From contig JBIPSI010000001.1 in assembly GCA_044070495.1 (NCBI GenBank), positions 96,001-160,000 of the forward strand: a stretch of 64,000 nucleotides of DNA, written 5' to 3'. Positions within the stretch are counted from its first letter, which is position 1. Each line of letters begins with the position of its first letter. Positions 48,191-55,200 of this stretch are shown one piece after another. The position numbers were made by a program, and so were the translations under genes. Below the pieces are notes generated by a model. That model did no database searches and had not been told where the DNA came from. It saw nothing but the letters and a program-made list of their open reading frames with translations. This DNA is from Spirulina sp. (lineage in GTDB: Bacteria > Cyanobacteriota > Cyanobacteriia > Phormidesmidales > Phormidesmidaceae).

Positions 48191-48634
48191 ATGCAATCCC
48201 CTTCTCTGACAGAAATTCAATCTAAAATTCCTAGGGTAGTGGAACAAACTCCCTACCTAAAATTGCTTGTGTTGTTTGGGTCTAGAGCAACAGCTAACGA
48301 CACCGAAAACAGTGATTGGGACTTTGCTGTTCTATACGATGAAGAACTGCGCCATCTCTACGAGACAGAAGCATTAGATTGGCTAAGAATTTGGTCTATC
48401 CTCCAAGCAGAGTTTAAACTTTCTGAGCAGCAGATTGACGTAGTCATTCTTAACCAATGTTCAAAAATCTCGGCCCACAATGTGGCTGAGACTGGATTGC
48501 TGTTATATGAAAGCTGCCCAGGCGAGTTTCAGAAATTTCGAGCCAGTCACTTAATGAGTTTATCCGAAAAAGCAGCCTATATCGATGATAAACGAATGGA
48601 AGTTAGGGCAGCTCTAGCCAGGTGGAAAAGATGA
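48191..48634 (+). CDS. mntA: MNT (minimal nucleotidyltransferase) antitoxin
   Basis: LFGSRA...SDWDFAV...IDVV. Confidence 0.88.
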   Translation: MQSPSLTEIQSKIPRVVEQTPYLKLLVLFGSRATANDTENSDWDFAVLYDEELRHLYETEALDWLRIWSILQAEFKLSEQQIDVVILNQCSKISAHNVAETGLLLYESCPGEFQKFRASHLMSLSEKAAYIDDKRMEVRAALARWKR

Positions 48635-49104
48635 GCAATTTGGATGTTCCGGGTGTTCTCAAAAAATTATCCGGCATGGCCAGACGATTTGACACCCTGA
48701 AGCGATACGAGAATATTTCTCTGGAAGACTATCTGCTCAACGAGGATGTTCAAATTATCACTGAGCGGCTACTTGAACTCATTATTCAGGCTGCTATTGA
48801 TATCAATAAAATGTTTCTGAAGCAGCTTGTCAATGTCAGGTTTGTGCCAGATAGTGGACAGCCGCTTACTAATGCAGAAACATTTCGTCTTATGGCCGCT
48901 CACGAATTTATCCCATCCAATCTAGCCGAAGTCCTAGCTAGATCCGGCCAGTTTCGCAATGTTCTAGCTCATTTCTATGACGATATTGATTCTAGGCAGG
49001 TCTATGATGCATTACAAATCACCCTAGATTACTATCCAGACTACATCGAAGCGATTCAAGATCATATCGATAGTCTATTTCATGATTTGGAGGTTAACCC
49101 ATGA
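48631..49104 (+). CDS. hepT: HEPN (DUF86) RNase toxin
   Basis: ERLLELIIQAAIDI and the R-X4-H-x-Y motif RNVLAHFY; ATGA overlap with MNT. Confidence 0.88.
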   Translation: MSNLDVPGVLKKLSGMARRFDTLKRYENISLEDYLLNEDVQIITERLLELIIQAAIDINKMFLKQLVNVRFVPDSGQPLTNAETFRLMAAHEFIPSNLAEVLARSGQFRNVLAHFYDDIDSRQVYDALQITLDYYPDYIEAIQDHIDSLFHDLEVNP

Positions 49105-49373
49105 CCCAAGCCAAAGTCGTCAGCGTTAACGACCAGCGACAGATCGATCTTCCCGAAGACATTCTCCAGACCCTCAATCCAGGGGATGAATATTTGGTCT
49201 GGCAAACCGGAGATAGCATTTTGCTGCAAAAAATCCAAAAACCCTCTGCCTTTGAGGCCTTGCTGGCAAAGGTGGACGCCCTAGGCCCCGACCCCGACCA
49301 ACTCAGCATGGACGCCCTTACGGCCTTGGTTAAGGACGTGCGCCGCCAACTACCCCAAACAACCAATAACTAA
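49101..49373 (+). CDS. AbrB/MazE-like small DNA-binding protein (orphan antitoxin-like)
   Basis: QIDLPEDI...LNPGDEYLV...SILLQKI swapped-hairpin pattern. Confidence 0.6.
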   Translation: MTQAKVVSVNDQRQIDLPEDILQTLNPGDEYLVWQTGDSILLQKIQKPSAFEALLAKVDALGPDPDQLSMDALTALVKDVRRQLPQTTNN

Positions 49374-49408
49374 TAACCAATAACCACCCCCCAATAACCA
49401 ATAACCAA
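49360..49408 (+). repeat. Heptamer array (YAACCAA) directly before the cas4 ATG
   Basis: CAACCAA TAACTAA TAACCAA TAACCA CCCCCCAA TAACCAA TAACCAA. Confidence 0.9.
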
Positions 49409-49409
49409 A

Positions 49410-49985
49410 ATGCCCGACGACTACCTTCCCCTGGCCTACCTCAATGCTTGGGAATATTGCCCGCGCCGATTTTACTTGGAATACCAGCTCGGTGAAATGG
49501 CCGACAACGAACACATCATCCTCGGTCGTCACCTGCACCGAGTGGTAGACGACGAAGGCCAACAATACGAGGGCGATACCCTCATGCGCCGCCATCAGTG
49601 GGTGTGGAGTGATCGCCTTCAGATCAAAGGCATCATCGACCTAGTTGAGCAACGGGACGATCAACTCGTGCCCGTAGAATTCAAAAAAGGCACGATGGGC
49701 CGCCACCTCAGCGATCACTTTCAGCTTTGTGCCGCTGGGCTTTGCCTAGAAGAACGCACGGGCCAAGCCATCTCCCACGGCGAAATTTTTTACCATAGCA
49801 ATCGGCGACGGCAGCAGGTACCCTTTACCCCGGAACTGAGAACGGCGACGGAGCAAGCCATTGCGGCAGCCCATGCAGCTCTAGAGACATCAATTCCCAA
49901 GCCAATCACCCATAAACGCAAGTGTCAGGCATGCAGTTTACAGAATATTTGTTTGCCGTTTGAGGTGGATTTTTTGGGGGGATAG
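49410..49985 (+). CDS. cas4: Cas4
   Basis: YCPRRF, GIIDLVE, VEFKKG, QLCA, CQACSLQNIC. Confidence 0.96.
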   Translation: MPDDYLPLAYLNAWEYCPRRFYLEYQLGEMADNEHIILGRHLHRVVDDEGQQYEGDTLMRRHQWVWSDRLQIKGIIDLVEQRDDQLVPVEFKKGTMGRHLSDHFQLCAAGLCLEERTGQAISHGEIFYHSNRRRQQVPFTPELRTATEQAIAAAHAALETSIPKPITHKRKCQACSLQNICLPFEVDFLGG

Positions 49986-50238
49986 TTATTTGTTATTTGT
50001 TATTCGTTGTTTGTTATTCGTTATTCGTTATTTGTTATTCGTTATTTGTTATTCGTTATTTGTTATTCGTTATTTGTTATTCGTTATTCGTTATTCGTTA
50101 TTCGTTATTCGTTATTCGTTATTCGTTATTCGTTATTCGTTATTCGTTCCTAGCAACCAACAACCAGTAACCAACAACCAGTAACCAACAACCAGTAACC
50201 AACAACCAGTAACCAACAACCAGTAACCAACAACCAAC
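49985..50238 (+). repeat. Bipartite heptamer array between cas4 and cas1
   Basis: (GTTRTTY)x23, core GTTCCTAGCAAC, (YAACCAR)x12 ending at the cas1 ATG. Confidence 0.95.
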
Positions 50239-51216
50239 ATGCCTACTCTTTATGTCACTCAACCCGACGCTGTTTTAAGTAAGAAGTACGAAGCTTTTTC
50301 CGTTGCTCTGCGCCAGGAGGATGGTTCTTGGCAGAAGCGATCTGTTCCGGCCCAGACGGTGGAGCAGGTGGTGCTGATGGGCAATCCCCAAATCACAGGC
50401 GATGCGCTGACCTATGCACTGGAGTTAGGGTTGCCCGTCCACTACCTAACCAGTTTTGGTAAATATTTGGGTTCGGCGTTGCCGGGGCATTCTCGTAATG
50501 GGCAGTTGCGGCTGGCTCAGTATGCGCTTTATTTGGATGCTGAGAAGCGGCTGGCTCTGGTGAAGAACATTGTGGAGGCCAAAATTCATAACCAATTTGG
50601 CGTTCTCTATCGCCATGGGCAGCGGGATAACCCTCTTAAGGCTCGCAAGAAGGCAGCCCAGCAGCAATCGACGCTGGACAAGGTGCGCGGCATGGAAGGG
50701 CTGGCGGCACGGGAATACTTTGCCTGCTGGCCCGCCATGCTGAAGCACGACTGGGGCTTTTCAGGCCGCAACCGTCGTCCGCCCAAGGATCCGGTGAATG
50801 CCCTGCTGAGCTTTGCCTATGCCCTGCTGCGGGTGCAGGTGACGGCGGCGGTGCATGTGGCAGGGCTGGATCCCTACGTGGGTTATCTCCATGAGGTTCA
50901 CCACGGTCAACCCGCCCTGGTGCTCGATTTGATGGAAGAATTTCGTCCGCTGATTGCCGATAACCTGGTGCTGGCAGTACTCAACAACCGCGAGATTCAG
51001 CCCAAAGACTTTACCGAAAGCCTGGGAGCCTACAATCTCTCTGACGCTGGCCGTAAAGCTTTTCTCCAAGCCTTTGAACGCAAAATGACCGATGAATTCA
51101 AGCATCCGGTCTTTGACTACCGCTGTTCTTACCGTCGTGCGATCGAACTTCAGGCTCGTCTGCTTAGTCGTCATTTACAAGAAGATATTCCTTATAAACC
51201 TCTGATGTTGCGGTGA
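50239..51216 (+). CDS. cas1: Type I-D Cas1
   Basis: GMEGLAAREYF, RNRRPPKDPVNALLS, GYLH, DLMEEFRP. Confidence 0.97.
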   Translation: MPTLYVTQPDAVLSKKYEAFSVALRQEDGSWQKRSVPAQTVEQVVLMGNPQITGDALTYALELGLPVHYLTSFGKYLGSALPGHSRNGQLRLAQYALYLDAEKRLALVKNIVEAKIHNQFGVLYRHGQRDNPLKARKKAAQQQSTLDKVRGMEGLAAREYFACWPAMLKHDWGFSGRNRRPPKDPVNALLSFAYALLRVQVTAAVHVAGLDPYVGYLHEVHHGQPALVLDLMEEFRPLIADNLVLAVLNNREIQPKDFTESLGAYNLSDAGRKAFLQAFERKMTDEFKHPVFDYRCSYRRAIELQARLLSRHLQEDIPYKPLMLR

Positions 51217-51220
51217 GGGG

Positions 51221-51257
51221 TGTTGGTTATTGGTTATTGGTTATTGGTTATTAGTTA
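51221..51257 (+). repeat. Heptamer array (TTGGTTA)x4 + TTAGTTA after cas1
   Basis: Read directly from the sequence. Confidence 0.9.
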
Positions 51258-51272
51258 GGGGGGGTGTGGGGT

Positions 51273-51638
51273 ATGGGTAGGGGGTTTAAGGAGTTGGAGG
51301 TTTATCAATTGTCGGAGCAGTTGGCTGACGCAATTTGGGAGATTGTTTTGACCTGGGATTTTTTCGCTAAAGACACTGTAGGCAAACAATTGGTCAGAGC
51401 TGCCGACAGCATTGGAGCCAATATTGCCGAGGGCACTGGCCGAGGCAGCTACCAAGATAATGCCCGTTTTATAACCATTGCCCGTGGCTCCCTCACCGAA
51501 ACCCAGCACTGGCTCCGCCGTGCCCATAACCGCCAACTTCTCACCACCGACCAAGTCGCCACCCTCAAACCCCTTATCGATACCCTAGCCCCCAAACTCA
51601 ATGCTTATCGCAATGCCATTCTTAATGCGAGGCGTTAA
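51273..51638 (+). CDS. Four-helix-bundle protein (23S rRNA IVS protein / TIGR02436 family, Avd-like fold)
   Basis: FKELEVYQ, QLVRAADSIGANIAEG.GR, F..IARGSL.ET..WL. Confidence 0.92.
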   Translation: MGRGFKELEVYQLSEQLADAIWEIVLTWDFFAKDTVGKQLVRAADSIGANIAEGTGRGSYQDNARFITIARGSLTETQHWLRRAHNRQLLTTDQVATLKPLIDTLAPKLNAYRNAILNARR

Positions 51639-51640
51639 TT

Positions 51641-51786
51641 GTTATTCGTTGTTTGTTATTCGTTGTTTGTTATTCGTTATTCGTTATTCGTTTCTAGTAA
51701 CCAACAACCAATAACCAATAACCAATAACCAATAACCAACAACCAACAACCAACAACCAATAACCAACAACCAATAACCAACAACC
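51641..51786 (+). repeat. Bipartite heptamer array between the four-helix-bundle gene and cas2
   Basis: (GTTRTTY)x7, core GTTTCTAGTAAC, (YAACCAA)x~12 ending at the cas2 ATG. Confidence 0.95.
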
Positions 51787-52080
51787 ATGACAAAACTCCT
51801 CTATCTAATCATTTACGATCTCCCTGACGACAAGGCCGCTAACAAACGCCGCAACCGTCTCCACAAGCTACTGTCGGGCTATGGTCAGTGGACTCAGTAC
51901 AGCGTGTTTGAGTGTTTTTTGACGGCGACTCAGTTTGCGCGGCTACAGGTGCAGCTAGAACGCCTGATTAAGCCAGAGACAGACTCGGTACGACTTTATG
52001 TTTTGGATGCTGGGGCGGTGAAGCGAACGCTGACCTACGGCTCTGAGAAGCCCCGCCAAACTGAGGCGATCATCCTATGA
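51787..52080 (+). CDS. cas2: Cas2
   Basis: YLIIYDL, YGQWTQYSVFEC, DSVRLY. Confidence 0.96.
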   Translation: MTKLLYLIIYDLPDDKAANKRRNRLHKLLSGYGQWTQYSVFECFLTATQFARLQVQLERLIKPETDSVRLYVLDAGAVKRTLTYGSEKPRQTEAIIL

Positions 52081-52289
52081 TGGAGGGGTGGCAATTTTCT
52101 GGCAAACCTCAGCAAGCCCAATTTCCCTGGGGGGTTCGCCAAAACCTTGGAACCTTGAAAATTCAATACTTTTTGATGATCCACCTAGGGGTAGGAGGTA
52201 TCCTAGAGGGGCGAGAGGCAACCGTTCTTAGGAGGTTCGCCAAAACAAGGGCCAAAACCCTTGCCAGACAAGGCTTCCAGGGCGCGGCC
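52081..52289 (+). promoter_or_regulatory. CRISPR leader
   Basis: Lies between cas2 and the first repeat; two direct GGTTCGCCAAAAC copies and one inverted variant. Confidence 0.8.
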
Positions 52290-55200
52290 CTCGCCAACCA
52301 CCCAATCTCGGCAACGAGACTGAAACAGGGCTGGTTTGATCCATCCTGAGGATGGATCACTCTCGCCAACCACCCAATCTCGGCAACGAGACTGAAACGT
52401 TTCGGTCTTTGGCGAGCGCCTGCGCCTGGAAAAACTCGCCAACCACCCAATCTCGGCAACGAGACTGAAACATATCTCTGCTGAAATCTCTAGGCTTAAT
52501 CGACATACTCGCCAACCACCCAATCTCGGCAACGAGACTGAAACAGGGCTGGGTCTAGGGCTTCATCAATGGCTCGTTCTGCTCGCCAACCACCCAATCT
52601 CGGCAACGAGACTGAAACCGGTCTCCGTTCTCCTGATCAATAATCTCCGTCCCGCTCGCCAACCACCCAATCTCGGCAACGAGACTGAAACAACGGCCTA
52701 TGGCGACATACGAACAACAACTGAAGCTCGCCAACCACCCAATCTCGGCAACGAGACTGAAACGCGCTGGCACGGCGGGGGGATCGACGCCGCCGTCGAC
52801 TCGCCAACCACCCAATCTCGGCAACGAGACTGAAACACCCACGAAGGCAAATCTAGCTACGCCCCTAGCCTAACTCGCCAACCACCCAATCTCGGCAACG
52901 AGACTGAAACAGTTGTTTGGCCTCCAGCCCTTCGATCCGCTCTTTCTCGCCAACCACCCAATCTCGGCAACGAGACTGAAACTAGTCTGGGGCGCGGTCC
53001 AGTAGTTCGTCGTTGCTGACTCGCCAACCACCCAATCTCGGCAACGAGACTGAAACAAAAACACCTTGACCCGAAACTGGGTCTTAGGAACGCTCGCCAA
53101 CCACCCAATCTCGGCAACGAGACTGAAACATCAAAATTCTGATCACCTTTCCCAAAAAACACCCCCTCGCCAACCACCCAATCTCGGCAACGAGACTGAA
53201 ACATATGCTGATCATGCCAAAGCTGTTGAGCCATCCAACTCGCCAACCACCCAATCTCGGCAACGAGACTGAAACATCGCTGCGCCGCGCCACTGCCGCC
53301 GAAAGCCCTCTCGCCAACCACCCAATCTCGGCAACGAGACTGAAACCAGCTTGTTTTATCGGGGCCAAATCTGCTTTTCTACTCGCCAACCACCCAATCT
53401 CGGCAACGAGACTGAAACGAGGATTTATGGGAGCTGCTGAGATGCCAAAAAGAAGCTCGCCAACCACCCAATCTCGGCAACGAGACTGAAACGAGCCGTC
53501 GATCCATCACATCGACCTGGCCCATCCCCTCGCCAACCACCCAATCTCGGCAACGAGACTGAAACGAGACCTCCCCGATTGAGGCGCAGGCGCAGATCGA
53601 CTCGCCAACCACCCAATCTCGGCAACGAGACTGAAACACTTCGTAGTTGAGGCAGAATCGGGCACCGCCAGGGCATCCCCTCGCCAACCACCCAATCTCG
53701 GCAACGAGACTGAAACCTTTAGCATCCAGCGCCGCTTGTAGGTCGGTCTGGTCTCGCCAACCACCCAATCTCGGCAACGAGACTGAAACCCAACCTCTTT
53801 GTCTGGGATGATCCGAGCCATCAAGTCTCGCCAACCACCCAATCTCGGCAACGAGACTGAAACCGTCAAAACTTGTGAGCTTCTTCGCTAACTCATCACT
53901 CGCCAACCACCCAATCTCGGCAACGAGACTGAAACTAGGCTCTGAAACTACCGCTGGGGACGGCGTTGGGGGCTCGCCAACCACCCAATCTCGGCAACGA
54001 GACTGAAACTAAACTTCCCATGGGTCGTTGCTGTTGCTAGCAGGCTCGCCAACCACCCAATCTCGGCAACGAGACTGAAACAGGTAAAGCTCATCGTCAG
54101 GCGTGGCCACATCAGGGGCTCGCCAACCACCCAATCTCGGCAACGAGACTGAAACATATCGGGTAACCATTGCCGATCAAAGTCGCTGTTAACTCGCCAA
54201 CCACCCAATCTCGGCAACGAGACTGAAACTGACCGATGGCTCTTGAAGACCTTTACGGAAAGATTCTGGCTCGCCAACCACCCAATCTCGGCAACGAGAC
54301 TGAAACCGCTCCCTGCCACCGTCTAGGAACTTTGAGAACGGCTCGCCAACCACCCAATCTCGGCAACGAGACTGAAACTTTGCCCACGGGGGTCGGCGAT
54401 CCAAACTTGTCGGCCTCGCCAACCACCCAATCTCGGCAACGAGACTGAAACAGGGATGGCCCTCCCCGTCTCGATCTAAGTACGGGCTCGCCAACCACCC
54501 AATCTCGGCAACGAGACTGAAACCCCCGAATCAACGGCTCGGCGAAATCGTTAAATCCACTCGCCAACCACCCAATCTCGGCAACGAGACTGAAACAGCT
54601 CCTAGCAGCGTGATTGCCTGTTTCGAGCCTACTCGCCAACCACCCAATCTCGGCAACGAGACTGAAACGTGCCGTTCTTGCTGAACAGGTTTGCGAATAG
54701 GGCTCGCCAACCACCCAATCTCGGCAACGAGACTGAAACTTGTTGAATTGAACTTTGATTCGCTGAATGGGCGGAGCTCGCCAACCACCCAATCTCGGCA
54801 ACGAGACTGAAACGACATTCTTTGTCTAGAGCGGCATTGATTCTTTTTGCTCGCCAACCACCCAATCTCGGCAACGAGACTGAAACAAAACAAACGTACA
54901 AAGGAGGACGTATGTTAAAATCCAGCTCGCCAACCACCCAATCTCGGCAACGAGACTGAAACGAGGAATTGCACCTCCGGCAGTAGTCGCCACTGCCCCT
55001 CGCCAACCACCCAATCTCGGCAACGAGACTGAAACCCCTCGGTGCTTCGAATTCCCCTGGGGGTATACGTTCTCGCCAACCACCCAATCTCGGCAACGAG
55101 ACTGAAACTCCTCGCGGACGTTGGCCCAGTAGTGGGCGGAGTCCTCGCCAACCACCCAATCTCGGCAACGAGACTGAAACACTGCCCTCAGATACTAGTC

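Follow-up and report, generated by a model that had tools for sequence, protein, structure and literature searches.

Introduction

Cyanobacterial heptamer satellites, tandem repeats of the STRR type, have served in strain fingerprinting for decades. To our knowledge they have no known origin or role, and rRNA intervening sequences with their four-helix open reading frame (ORF) are equally unexplained. The present study concerns a stretch of 64,000 nucleotides from Spirulina sp. (assembly GCA_044070495.1, contig JBIPSI010000001.1, positions 96,001 to 160,000), hereafter called the window, where heptamer satellites and the four-helix ORF of intervening sequences are joined within a protein-coding operon. 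The window holds a CRISPR-Cas locus in which inverted heptamer arrays fill the stop-to-start gaps between cas4 and cas1 and before cas2, and a four-helix gene of family PF05635 lies between cas1 and cas2. The feature is a repeat-armed cassette that resembles an intervening sequence, together with its empty form, in a CRISPR adaptation operon.

Among published systems, the ORF-bearing intervening sequence (IVS) of 23S rRNA genes comes closest. In Coxiella burnetii, the IVS carries an S23p ORF, its ends form a 28-bp terminal inverted-repeat stem that is cut by RNase III, and a variable number of tandem heptamers precedes the ORF; Leptospira is named there as well (PMC4990558). For Xanthomonas, another paper gives 70-75 convergent heptamer pairs that could form stem-loops, and it also reports a repeat inside the pec operon of Nostoc, with few inverted heptamer pairs in that genus (PMC4692102). 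In Beggiatoaceae and some cyanobacteria, forward TAACTGA direct repeats lie a few nucleotides from start codons, often without a ribosome-binding site (PMC4679880). No published link of PF05635 genes to inverted heptamer arrays outside rRNA was found in our search, whose scope lay outside subscription journals.

Results

Inverted heptamer arrays fill two gaps of the cas operon

The gap between cas4 and cas1 (49985-50238) and the gap before cas2 (51639-51786) have the same composition. Both read stop codon, (GTTRTTY)n, GTTYCTAGYAAC, (YAACCAR)m and ATG, with n of ~23 and ~8, respectively, and m of ~12. The arrays were delimited with Tandem Repeats Finder and by listing the sequence unit by unit. 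Both approaches bear out the tripartite grammar with its polarity switch and the positions of the two cores, as given in the original prediction made from the sequence of this stretch, with the difference that the second n is ~8 instead of 7. The 7-base register continues through the core in both gaps. The second left array was returned by Tandem Repeats Finder as (GTTRTTY) x8.6 at 51633-51692 and begins directly after the stop codon of the four-helix gene (TAA, 51636-51638).

The two arms of each module are quasi-complementary with a mismatch in each heptamer, again as had been predicted: the complementarity amounts to 6/7 per unit in array 2, where the mismatch is C.C, and to ~10-11/14 in array 1. 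The left unit TTATTCG differs by a single base from TTATTGG, the perfect complement of CCAATAA, and the left-arm unit GTTRTTY is a one-base variant of TTGGTTA. In hairpin 1, the left arm is longer than any other period-7 array of the assembly, and the right arm is made of CAACCAA, CAACCAG and TAACCAA units.

All 6 period-7 arrays (at least 3 copies) of the window are located within 49361-51787, that is 2.4 kb, and have 5 to 23.4 copies. Two of them had previously been missed, namely (AACCAAT) x6.9 before cas4 and (TTGGTTA) x5 after cas1. The latter, the outer arm U, complements the TAACCAA units before cas2 exactly. The gap between cas1 and cas2 is a full cassette, which can be read as outer arm (TTGGTTA)5, gene, inner arm, CTAG turn and right arm. 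The gap between cas4 and cas1 is an empty cassette, and its hairpin leaves no room for a gene. The link of the arrays to the PF05635 gene, not drawn in the original prediction, is the key to their identity. All features are summarized in Table 1. The ORFs at 49960-50184 and 49997-50170 were considered as genes and rejected, both being translated heptamer repeat.

Table 1. Position of the genes, arrays and cores of the cas4-cas1-cas2 region (window coordinates)
Feature	Position	Strand	Remarks
A/C-rich leader array, (AACCAAT) x6.9	49361..49408	+	ends 1 nt before cas4 ATG (49410); without left arm
cas4, 191 aa	49410..49985	+	PF01930, E 8e-23; TAG stop (49983-49985) is first triplet of next array
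Hairpin 1 left arm, (GTTATTC) x23.4	49985..50148	+	GTTATTC x16, GTTATTT x6, GTTGTTT x1
Core 1, GTTCCTAGCAAC	50146..50157	.	hairpin turn, within 7-base register
Hairpin 1 right arm, x12.3	50154..50238	+	(CAACCAG TAACCAA) x5 + CAACCAA; abuts cas1 ATG (50239)
cas1, 325 aa	50239..51216	+	PF01867, E 3.5e-93
Outer arm U, (TTGGTTA) x5	51223..51257	+	between cas1 stop and four-helix gene
Four-helix-bundle gene (PF05635, 23S rRNA-intervening-sequence protein)	51273..51638	+	121 aa from ATG 51273
Hairpin 2 inner left arm U'	51639..51692	+	TTGTTAT, TCGTTGT, TCGTTAT units
Core 2, GTTTCTAGTAAC	51690..51701	.	identical core in relative L002
Hairpin 2 right arm, (YAACCAA) x12.7	51699..51786	+	TAACCAA x7, CAACCAA x5; abuts cas2 ATG (51787)
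cas2, 97 aa	51787..52080	+	Pfam CRISPR_Cas2; then leader and CRISPR array from 52290

The source assembly (5.31 Mb, 74 contigs, 56.7% G+C) contains 159 period-7 arrays of at least 3 copies. Five of these are located within 150 nt of a contig end, while only 0.4% of the genome is so near an end. Long pure arrays break this assembly, since contigs end or start inside a pure CCAATAA array. Both hairpin arrays were assembled through, the longest uniform run being 10 units (70 nt), and judged from the assembly the unit counts of both hairpins are probably right. At the end of one contig (G000 C11:155727-155855) and the start of another (C43:4-146), pure CCAATAA/CAATAAC arrays of 18-20 units are found, probably one array that was split in assembly, and an ORF starts 10 nt beyond the C43 array.

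PF05635 genes lie between inverted arrays in the genome and in the genus

Four PF05635 genes are present in the genome. Every one of them lies between inverted arrays of short repeats, and the unit differs from locus to locus (TTGGTTA/TAACCAA, GAAGGTT/AACCTTC, TTCAAAG/TTTTGAA and GGTGAGG/CCTCACC). At 3 of the 4 loci, outer arm, gene, inner arm, loop and complementary arm follow one another in this order. In the genus sample, 79 PF05635 matches were obtained in 32 of 53 genomes; 30 loci were examined, 4 of which are cut by contig ends, leaving 26 scorable loci. Complementarity between the upstream and downstream flanks reached a z-score of at least 3 against shuffles at 17 of these 26 loci versus 10 of 300 random ORFs (at least 250 aa) of this genome. 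At least eight 7-mers are shared in inverted orientation at 20 of the 26, by a measure that has no control, and the downstream flank is self-complementary (z of at least 2.4) at 7 of them. The orthologous sites L021 and L023 have different repeat units and their arms are still complementary. At L027, also an orthologous site, only direct repeats are found and the arms are not a complementary pair.

A consensus-based search of the genome for period-7/8 arrays detected 7 inverted pairs among 257 arrays. Five pairs are in hairpin orientation; three of them enclose a PF05635 gene and the remaining two, on C7 and C51, do not. Remnants of a PF05635 gene inside these two pairs were considered and rejected, as tblastn gave nothing below E 1. 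The C7 pair (G000 C7:63491-63799) consists of inverted TTGGTTR / YAACCAA-type arrays enclosing a minus-strand ORF of ~70 aa that is unlike PF05635 proteins; therefore, inverted arms are not exclusive to this family.

The PF05635 gene of the window was compared to that of L002, a cas locus whose Cas1 is 97% identical. The two genes differ at 16 synonymous and 3 non-synonymous sites, and the ratio of non-synonymous to synonymous substitution rates (dN/dS) of 0.05 in this one pair suggests that the gene is under purifying selection. The cassette of the genome with TTCAAAG/TTTTGAA arms (G000 C16:82450-83600; L049 1151-2295) is located inside a Y1_Tnp (IS200-like) gene. By comparison with the intact 265-aa homologue L054, it replaces residues 77-139 (63 codons), and the N- and C-terminal parts of the transposase flank the cassette.

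PF05635 genes are frequent close to cas1. In the 25 genomes covered by both searches, 7 of 38 PF05635 matches are found no more than 3 kb from a match to cas1, in four distinct locus types (G000:C1, G019:C65, G010:C391, G004:C114, G004:C1 and G024:C2). This count was made by hand from two tables, without a formal test, and the share is far above what is expected from the small fraction of the genome near cas1. At two other loci, L013 (G048:C535) and L015 (G005:C52), the PF05635 gene has a (CCCGACT)n array downstream only and, from the translated flanks, appears between two frames that resemble parts of one large methyltransferase-type defence gene.

The two hairpins share a core, a phase and unit variants

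The 12-mer GTTNCTAGNAAC occurs 2 times in the 5.31-Mb genome versus 3.5 times expected from base composition and is thus not enriched. Both occurrences coincide exactly with the two polarity switches and have the same repeat phase, and the left arms of both hairpins contain the same three unit variants, TTGTTAT, TCGTTGT and TCGTTAT. From the shared switch position, phase and left-arm variants we infer common descent of the two modules, not two independent slippage events; they would be paralogous copies of one imperfect hairpin. The hairpin between the PF05635 gene and cas2 is kept in L002 with the same GTTTCTAGTAAC core and different unit numbers, which suggests that this copy predates the split from the L002 lineage.

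The core is absent from the loops of the other cassettes in the genome and in the genus, which differ from it. A scan of species-representative genomes for the core with its arm edges gave 4 matches. One is real, a Nodosilinea record (L046) with the same layout of PF05635 gene, core and cas2 as L002, and the other 3, in Bacteroidota and Vagococcus, are chance matches without arrays. The same scan of metagenome contigs gave 8 matches, none of them real, all being AT-rich chance matches without arrays. As the cas operon L009 described below repeats the grammar with a different shared loop, the CTAG core appears to be the inherited loop of one lineage and not a general site.

These data bear on several proposals of the original prediction. 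A duplicated module is supported by the shared core, phase and arm variants, by the copy kept in L002 and by the two hairpins with a shared loop in L009, and we agree that simple slippage alone is insufficient. The defined recombination, cleavage or binding site proposed at CTAG is unsupported as a general site, given that the loops of other cassettes differ and lack the core. Conservation of the core thus holds for the orthologous junction of L002 and fails for the other heptamer junctions. Deletion of cas1 and the four-helix gene between the two cores is possible on paper; the deleted form was not seen, and L002 and L003 keep cas1.

Cas operons of relatives carry the cassette at different junctions

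In L002, the region before cas2 comprises (TTGGTTR)n, the PF05635 gene, 5-6 left units, GTTTCTAGTAAC and ~14 right units. In L003 (Cas1 94% and Cas4 88% identical), it is the cas4-cas1 gap that contains a short G/T-rich arm, a PF05635 gene and a short CCAATAA-type arm, and no repeats were found in its cas1-cas2 spacer. The L003 gene is frameshifted, with two open pieces matching the window protein at 81/92 and 28/33 residues. The window is reversed with respect to L003, with the gene-less hairpin at cas4-cas1 and the gene at cas1-cas2. Either the gene would have moved by one junction or two ancestral copies would have been lost differentially; the sequences fit both. Neither Cas4 nor Csc2 was found in the genome of L002 (G019, 98% complete) using the window proteins. 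At positions 1-1500 of L002, a long YAACCAA array before cas1 is bordered, across a 100-N scaffold gap, by an unrelated gene; either a rearrangement at the array or a join made in scaffolding may explain this.

L009 is a non-orthologous cas operon (Cas1 40% identical) with a PF05635 cassette before cas4. Its cas4-cas1 gap (201 nt) reads stop codon, G-rich arm, TTAGGCATTGAACATT, long C-rich arm and ATG, with an RNA fold z-score of -6.3, and its cas1-cas2 gap (108 nt) reads stop codon, G-rich arm, TTAGGCCATGAAC, C-rich arm and ATG, with z -5.6. The two loops are alike (TTAGGCATTGAAC and TTAGGCCATGAAC), a TTAGGC..GAAC pair with units other than those of the window. Two hairpins with a shared loop in one operon were thus seen twice, as the CTAG pair in the window and as the TTAGGC..GAAC pair in L009.

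For the cas1-cas2 spacers of other relatives, the cas2 start was placed by the N-terminal motif of cas2. The spacers of L005 and L011 fold with z -4.8 and -4.7, respectively, folding is not significant in those of L006, L007 and L008, and L010 has an uninterrupted 3-nt cas1-cas2 junction. In L024, an opposite-strand PF05635 gene flanked by G-rich and C-rich arms is located between a long cas1 frame and cas2. Finally, the cas4-cas1 gap of a 75%-identical locus (L004 2490-2700, in G032) is free of heptamers and contains other G-rich/C-rich palindromic elements (232 nt, minimum free energy -81, z -2.1).

Predicted folding of the spacers

As sense-strand RNA, array 1 is predicted to fold at -51 kcal/mol (z -3.15) and array 2 at -36.5 kcal/mol (z -7.7). 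As single-stranded DNA, the value is -20 (z -4.0) for array 2 and -9.7 (z +2.8) for array 1, the latter being worse than all 200 shuffles. At cas1-cas2, the outer arm (51217-51263) forms with the right arm a predicted duplex of -58.5 kcal/mol versus -35.7 for the inner arm. In the minimum-energy fold of 51201-51800, U' pairs with the proximal half and U with the distal half of the right arm of hairpin 2, and the unit counts agree with such two-arm pairing (5 + ~8 versus 12.7). The same fold puts the cas1 stop codon beside the cas2 ATG, at the base of a structure that encloses the PF05635 gene.

A search of 48900-52400 against Rfam 15 detected no family at gathering score and no rRNA match. The best result, below threshold, matched array 2 with models of long miRNA-precursor hairpins (50 bits versus a 144-bit cut-off), others being weaker. 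No intrinsic terminator, searched as a G+C-rich stem followed by a T run, was found in either array, and the region contains 4 such sites versus 4.2 expected from shuffles. Promoter and terminator consensus scans remained at chance level.

A/C-rich arrays precede start codons

Among the period-7 arrays of the genome, no family has more runs than AACCAAT (30 of 155). Intergenic position was checked for the YAACCAN family only, which has 46 arrays of at least 3 units. An ORF of at least 100 aa starts from -6 to +30 nt of the array in 21 of 46 cases in forward orientation versus 1 of 46 in reverse orientation, and at 334 of 2000 random control positions. The distance from array to ORF start is mostly 1-12 nt. 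The right arm of the hairpins is one of many A/C-rich leader arrays that abut start codons in this genome. An inverted pair with its G/T-rich arm first reads alike on both strands; therefore, a gene that starts beside a cassette receives an A/C-rich leader, and a gene that ends beside one has a G/T-rich arm after it. A (CAACAAC) x6 array (G000 C20:29598-29641) likewise stands before the genome's second cas1 (39% identical), whose start lies 1 nt after it.

Other genes of the locus

The window contains a type I-D CRISPR-Cas locus, in which Pfam searches identified Csc2, Cas6, a MNT/HepT pair, Cas4, Cas1, PF05635 and Cas2. The PF05635 gene starts at GTG 51264 in the ORF list, and its 23S_rRNA_IVP match (E 2.4e-29) covers 51264-51638. 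Between cas6 and cas4, the nucleotidyltransferase (Polbeta/NTP_transf_2) and HepT-like RNase form a pair of the toxin-antitoxin type (48191-49104). It is followed by a 90-aa ORF without Pfam match, whose end enters the AACCAAT array before cas4.

Discussion

We favour, by a modest degree, the reading in which the two modules are gene-less or inner hairpin copies of a repeat-armed PF05635 cassette, inserted at the stop/start junctions of cas4-cas1-cas2 and looped out as RNA. Each module consists of a G/T-rich 5' arm, a CTAG turn of 4-6 nt and an A/C-rich 3' arm (YAACCAR). One module may have been copied from the other, or may have remained when the gene moved between neighbouring junctions, and the arms would later have grown and changed by slippage. 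In the polycistronic transcript the arms would pair, so that the whole insertion would be looped out and the upstream stop codon, at the base of the stem, would come next to the downstream start codon. The A/C-rich arm would double as a G-poor leader of the kind found before the ATG of many genes in this genome. By analogy with rRNA intervening sequences, the long imperfect stem would be a likely RNase III substrate; three genes with an RNase III domain are present in the genome. Such insertions would be tolerated, and perhaps used, since looping-out would restore the proximity of stop and start codons. The anatomy of the modules, their paralogy, their association with the gene, the return of the same grammar in further cas operons and the polarity rule rest on the sequences themselves; pairing in vivo, processing of the stem and any effect on cas1 and cas2 expression are what this reading would predict.

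Several observations weigh against this reading. The antisense RNAs fold better than the sense RNAs (-67.9 and -61.7 kcal/mol) owing to G.U pairs, so that the mRNA is not set apart by its folding. Every unit contains a mismatch, which makes the pairing imperfect, and roughly half of the left arm of hairpin 1 stays unpaired (23 units versus 12). The right arm differs between L002 and the window by ACCCAAC, AGCCAAT and AACTAGT units, with nothing corresponding in the left arm, which is not what strict selection on pairing predicts. In the genus, 9 of the 26 scorable loci stay below z 3 for flank complementarity, and the loci are not independent: by reading of their flanks, the 30 loci amount to ~17 distinct sites, several of them orthologous across species. 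Loss of a gene from the cas4-cas1 gap by recombination between outer and inner arms was also considered; it is unsupported, the 23-unit arm being devoid of TTGGTTA-type units. Lastly, inverted symmetry can also arise and persist through DNA-level processes.

Part of these observations would equally fit neutral debris, an explanation that we judge unlikely overall and nevertheless worth serious weight. Ordinary heptamer satellites of the STRR type would have grown by replication slippage in any intergenic gap that puts up with them, the second hairpin would have arisen by unequal recombination or gene conversion between the two similar A/C-rich leaders of the operon, and hairpin and core would be inert. 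Such a view accommodates the 159 arrays of the genome, the differences in unit numbers and variants between close relatives, the unpartnered surplus of the left arm of hairpin 1, the lack of compensatory changes between the window and L002, and the decay by frameshift of the L003 gene. It does not readily explain why units differ between loci while arms stay complementary within a locus (17/26 versus 10/300 controls), why non-orthologous cas operons have the same grammar at the same type of junction, why A/C-rich arrays obey an orientation rule (21/46 versus 1/46), or why the arrays fill the space from stop to start exactly.

The cassette model may be extended into a joint reading, which is speculative and in our opinion rather improbable. 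Whether or not it carries the four-helix gene, the heptamer hairpin would be the propagating unit of a self-spreading element that colonises operon stop/start junctions, copies itself into neighbouring junctions and markedly prefers CRISPR adaptation operons. The four-helix protein, related to Avd, the accessory protein of diversity-generating retroelements, would make, maintain or read the arrays, and solo A/C-rich leaders would be footprints of the element. If true, this would give cyanobacterial heptamer satellites an origin, and a role in Shine-Dalgarno-independent or coupled translation.

The modules could also act at the DNA level, as the end of a mobile cassette or a recombination site, single-stranded or cruciform, that is read by a recombinase or HUH-type enzyme and cut or joined at the CTAG turn. 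This would account for the copying into a neighbouring junction and for the relocation of the four-helix gene, which occupies different junctions in close relatives. It would also suit the C16 cassette that replaced 63 codons within a Y1 transposase gene, the two operons that each have two hairpins with a shared loop, and L002, where cas4 and csc2 were not detected and an unrelated gene lies beside the array before cas1, across the 100-N gap. We nonetheless regard it as decidedly improbable, because the core is not common to other cassettes and is limited to 2 genomic copies plus a single one in one relative, neither a target-site duplication nor a conserved terminal sequence was observed, array 1 makes a poor hairpin as single-stranded DNA, cassettes at orthologous sites in several species imply that movement is rare, and no candidate enzyme is linked to the module. 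That two separate slippage expansions acquired the same core by coincidence is, even if a 12-mer expected 3.5 times and seen twice is in itself not rare, extremely improbable, since both occurrences sit exactly at polarity switches, phase in both arms and three left-arm variants are the same, the ortholog L002 keeps the core, and the two collection scans found no unrelated TTGGTTA/TAACCAA junction with it.

The locus presents full and empty copies of the cassette side by side, a relative with the gene one junction over, and other CRISPR adaptation operons that are likewise colonised. Should the stems be processed or couple translation, they would set the expression of cas4, cas1 and cas2 and hence the rate of spacer acquisition. 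Should they be inert, the locus would still offer a clean natural series for the co-evolution of repeat arrays and their inverted partners.

Comparison with known systems

Like REP/REPIN and miniature inverted-repeat transposable element (MITE)-type hairpins, the modules are short, gene-less, intergenic and copyable. Unlike these, their arms are tandem arrays with locus-specific units and not a conserved family sequence. The many near-identical dispersed copies expected of a MITE or REPIN were not found either, the core being present twice, both times in the cas operon, and elsewhere in one related genome. No target-site duplication is visible at the stop/start boundaries, where the arrays would hide a short one.

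With STRR sequences and the heptamers of Xanthomonas and Nostoc, the arrays have in common tandem 7-base units in intergenic DNA, many dispersed arrays and a variable copy number. Their units are not G-quadruplex formers, and the paper on Xanthomonas and Nostoc contains neither 'intervening' nor 'S23' (PMC4692102). The right arms that run up to the cas1 and cas2 start codons, the leader array that stops 1 nt short of the cas4 ATG and the forward bias of 21/46 recall the TAACTGA repeats (PMC4679880). The unit is however different, and that paper has a single inverted repeat and describes neither an upstream complementary arm nor a connection to a four-helix gene.

The 23S rRNA IVS differs from the present feature by its host, which is here the protein-coding operon cas4-cas1-cas2 and not a 23S rRNA gene. 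Arms of up to 23 units, an additional inner hairpin after the gene and one gene-less copy are further differences, and excision by RNase III is documented for the Coxiella IVS (PMC4990558), whereas processing of the window stem is only proposed. Nevertheless, the cas1-cas2 cassette, and it alone, shares with the IVS a PF05635/S23p four-helix gene, preceded by tandem heptamers that vary in number, inside an insertion whose inverted-repeat ends can form a stem, and in both cases the insertion is situated within a transcribed region that must keep working.

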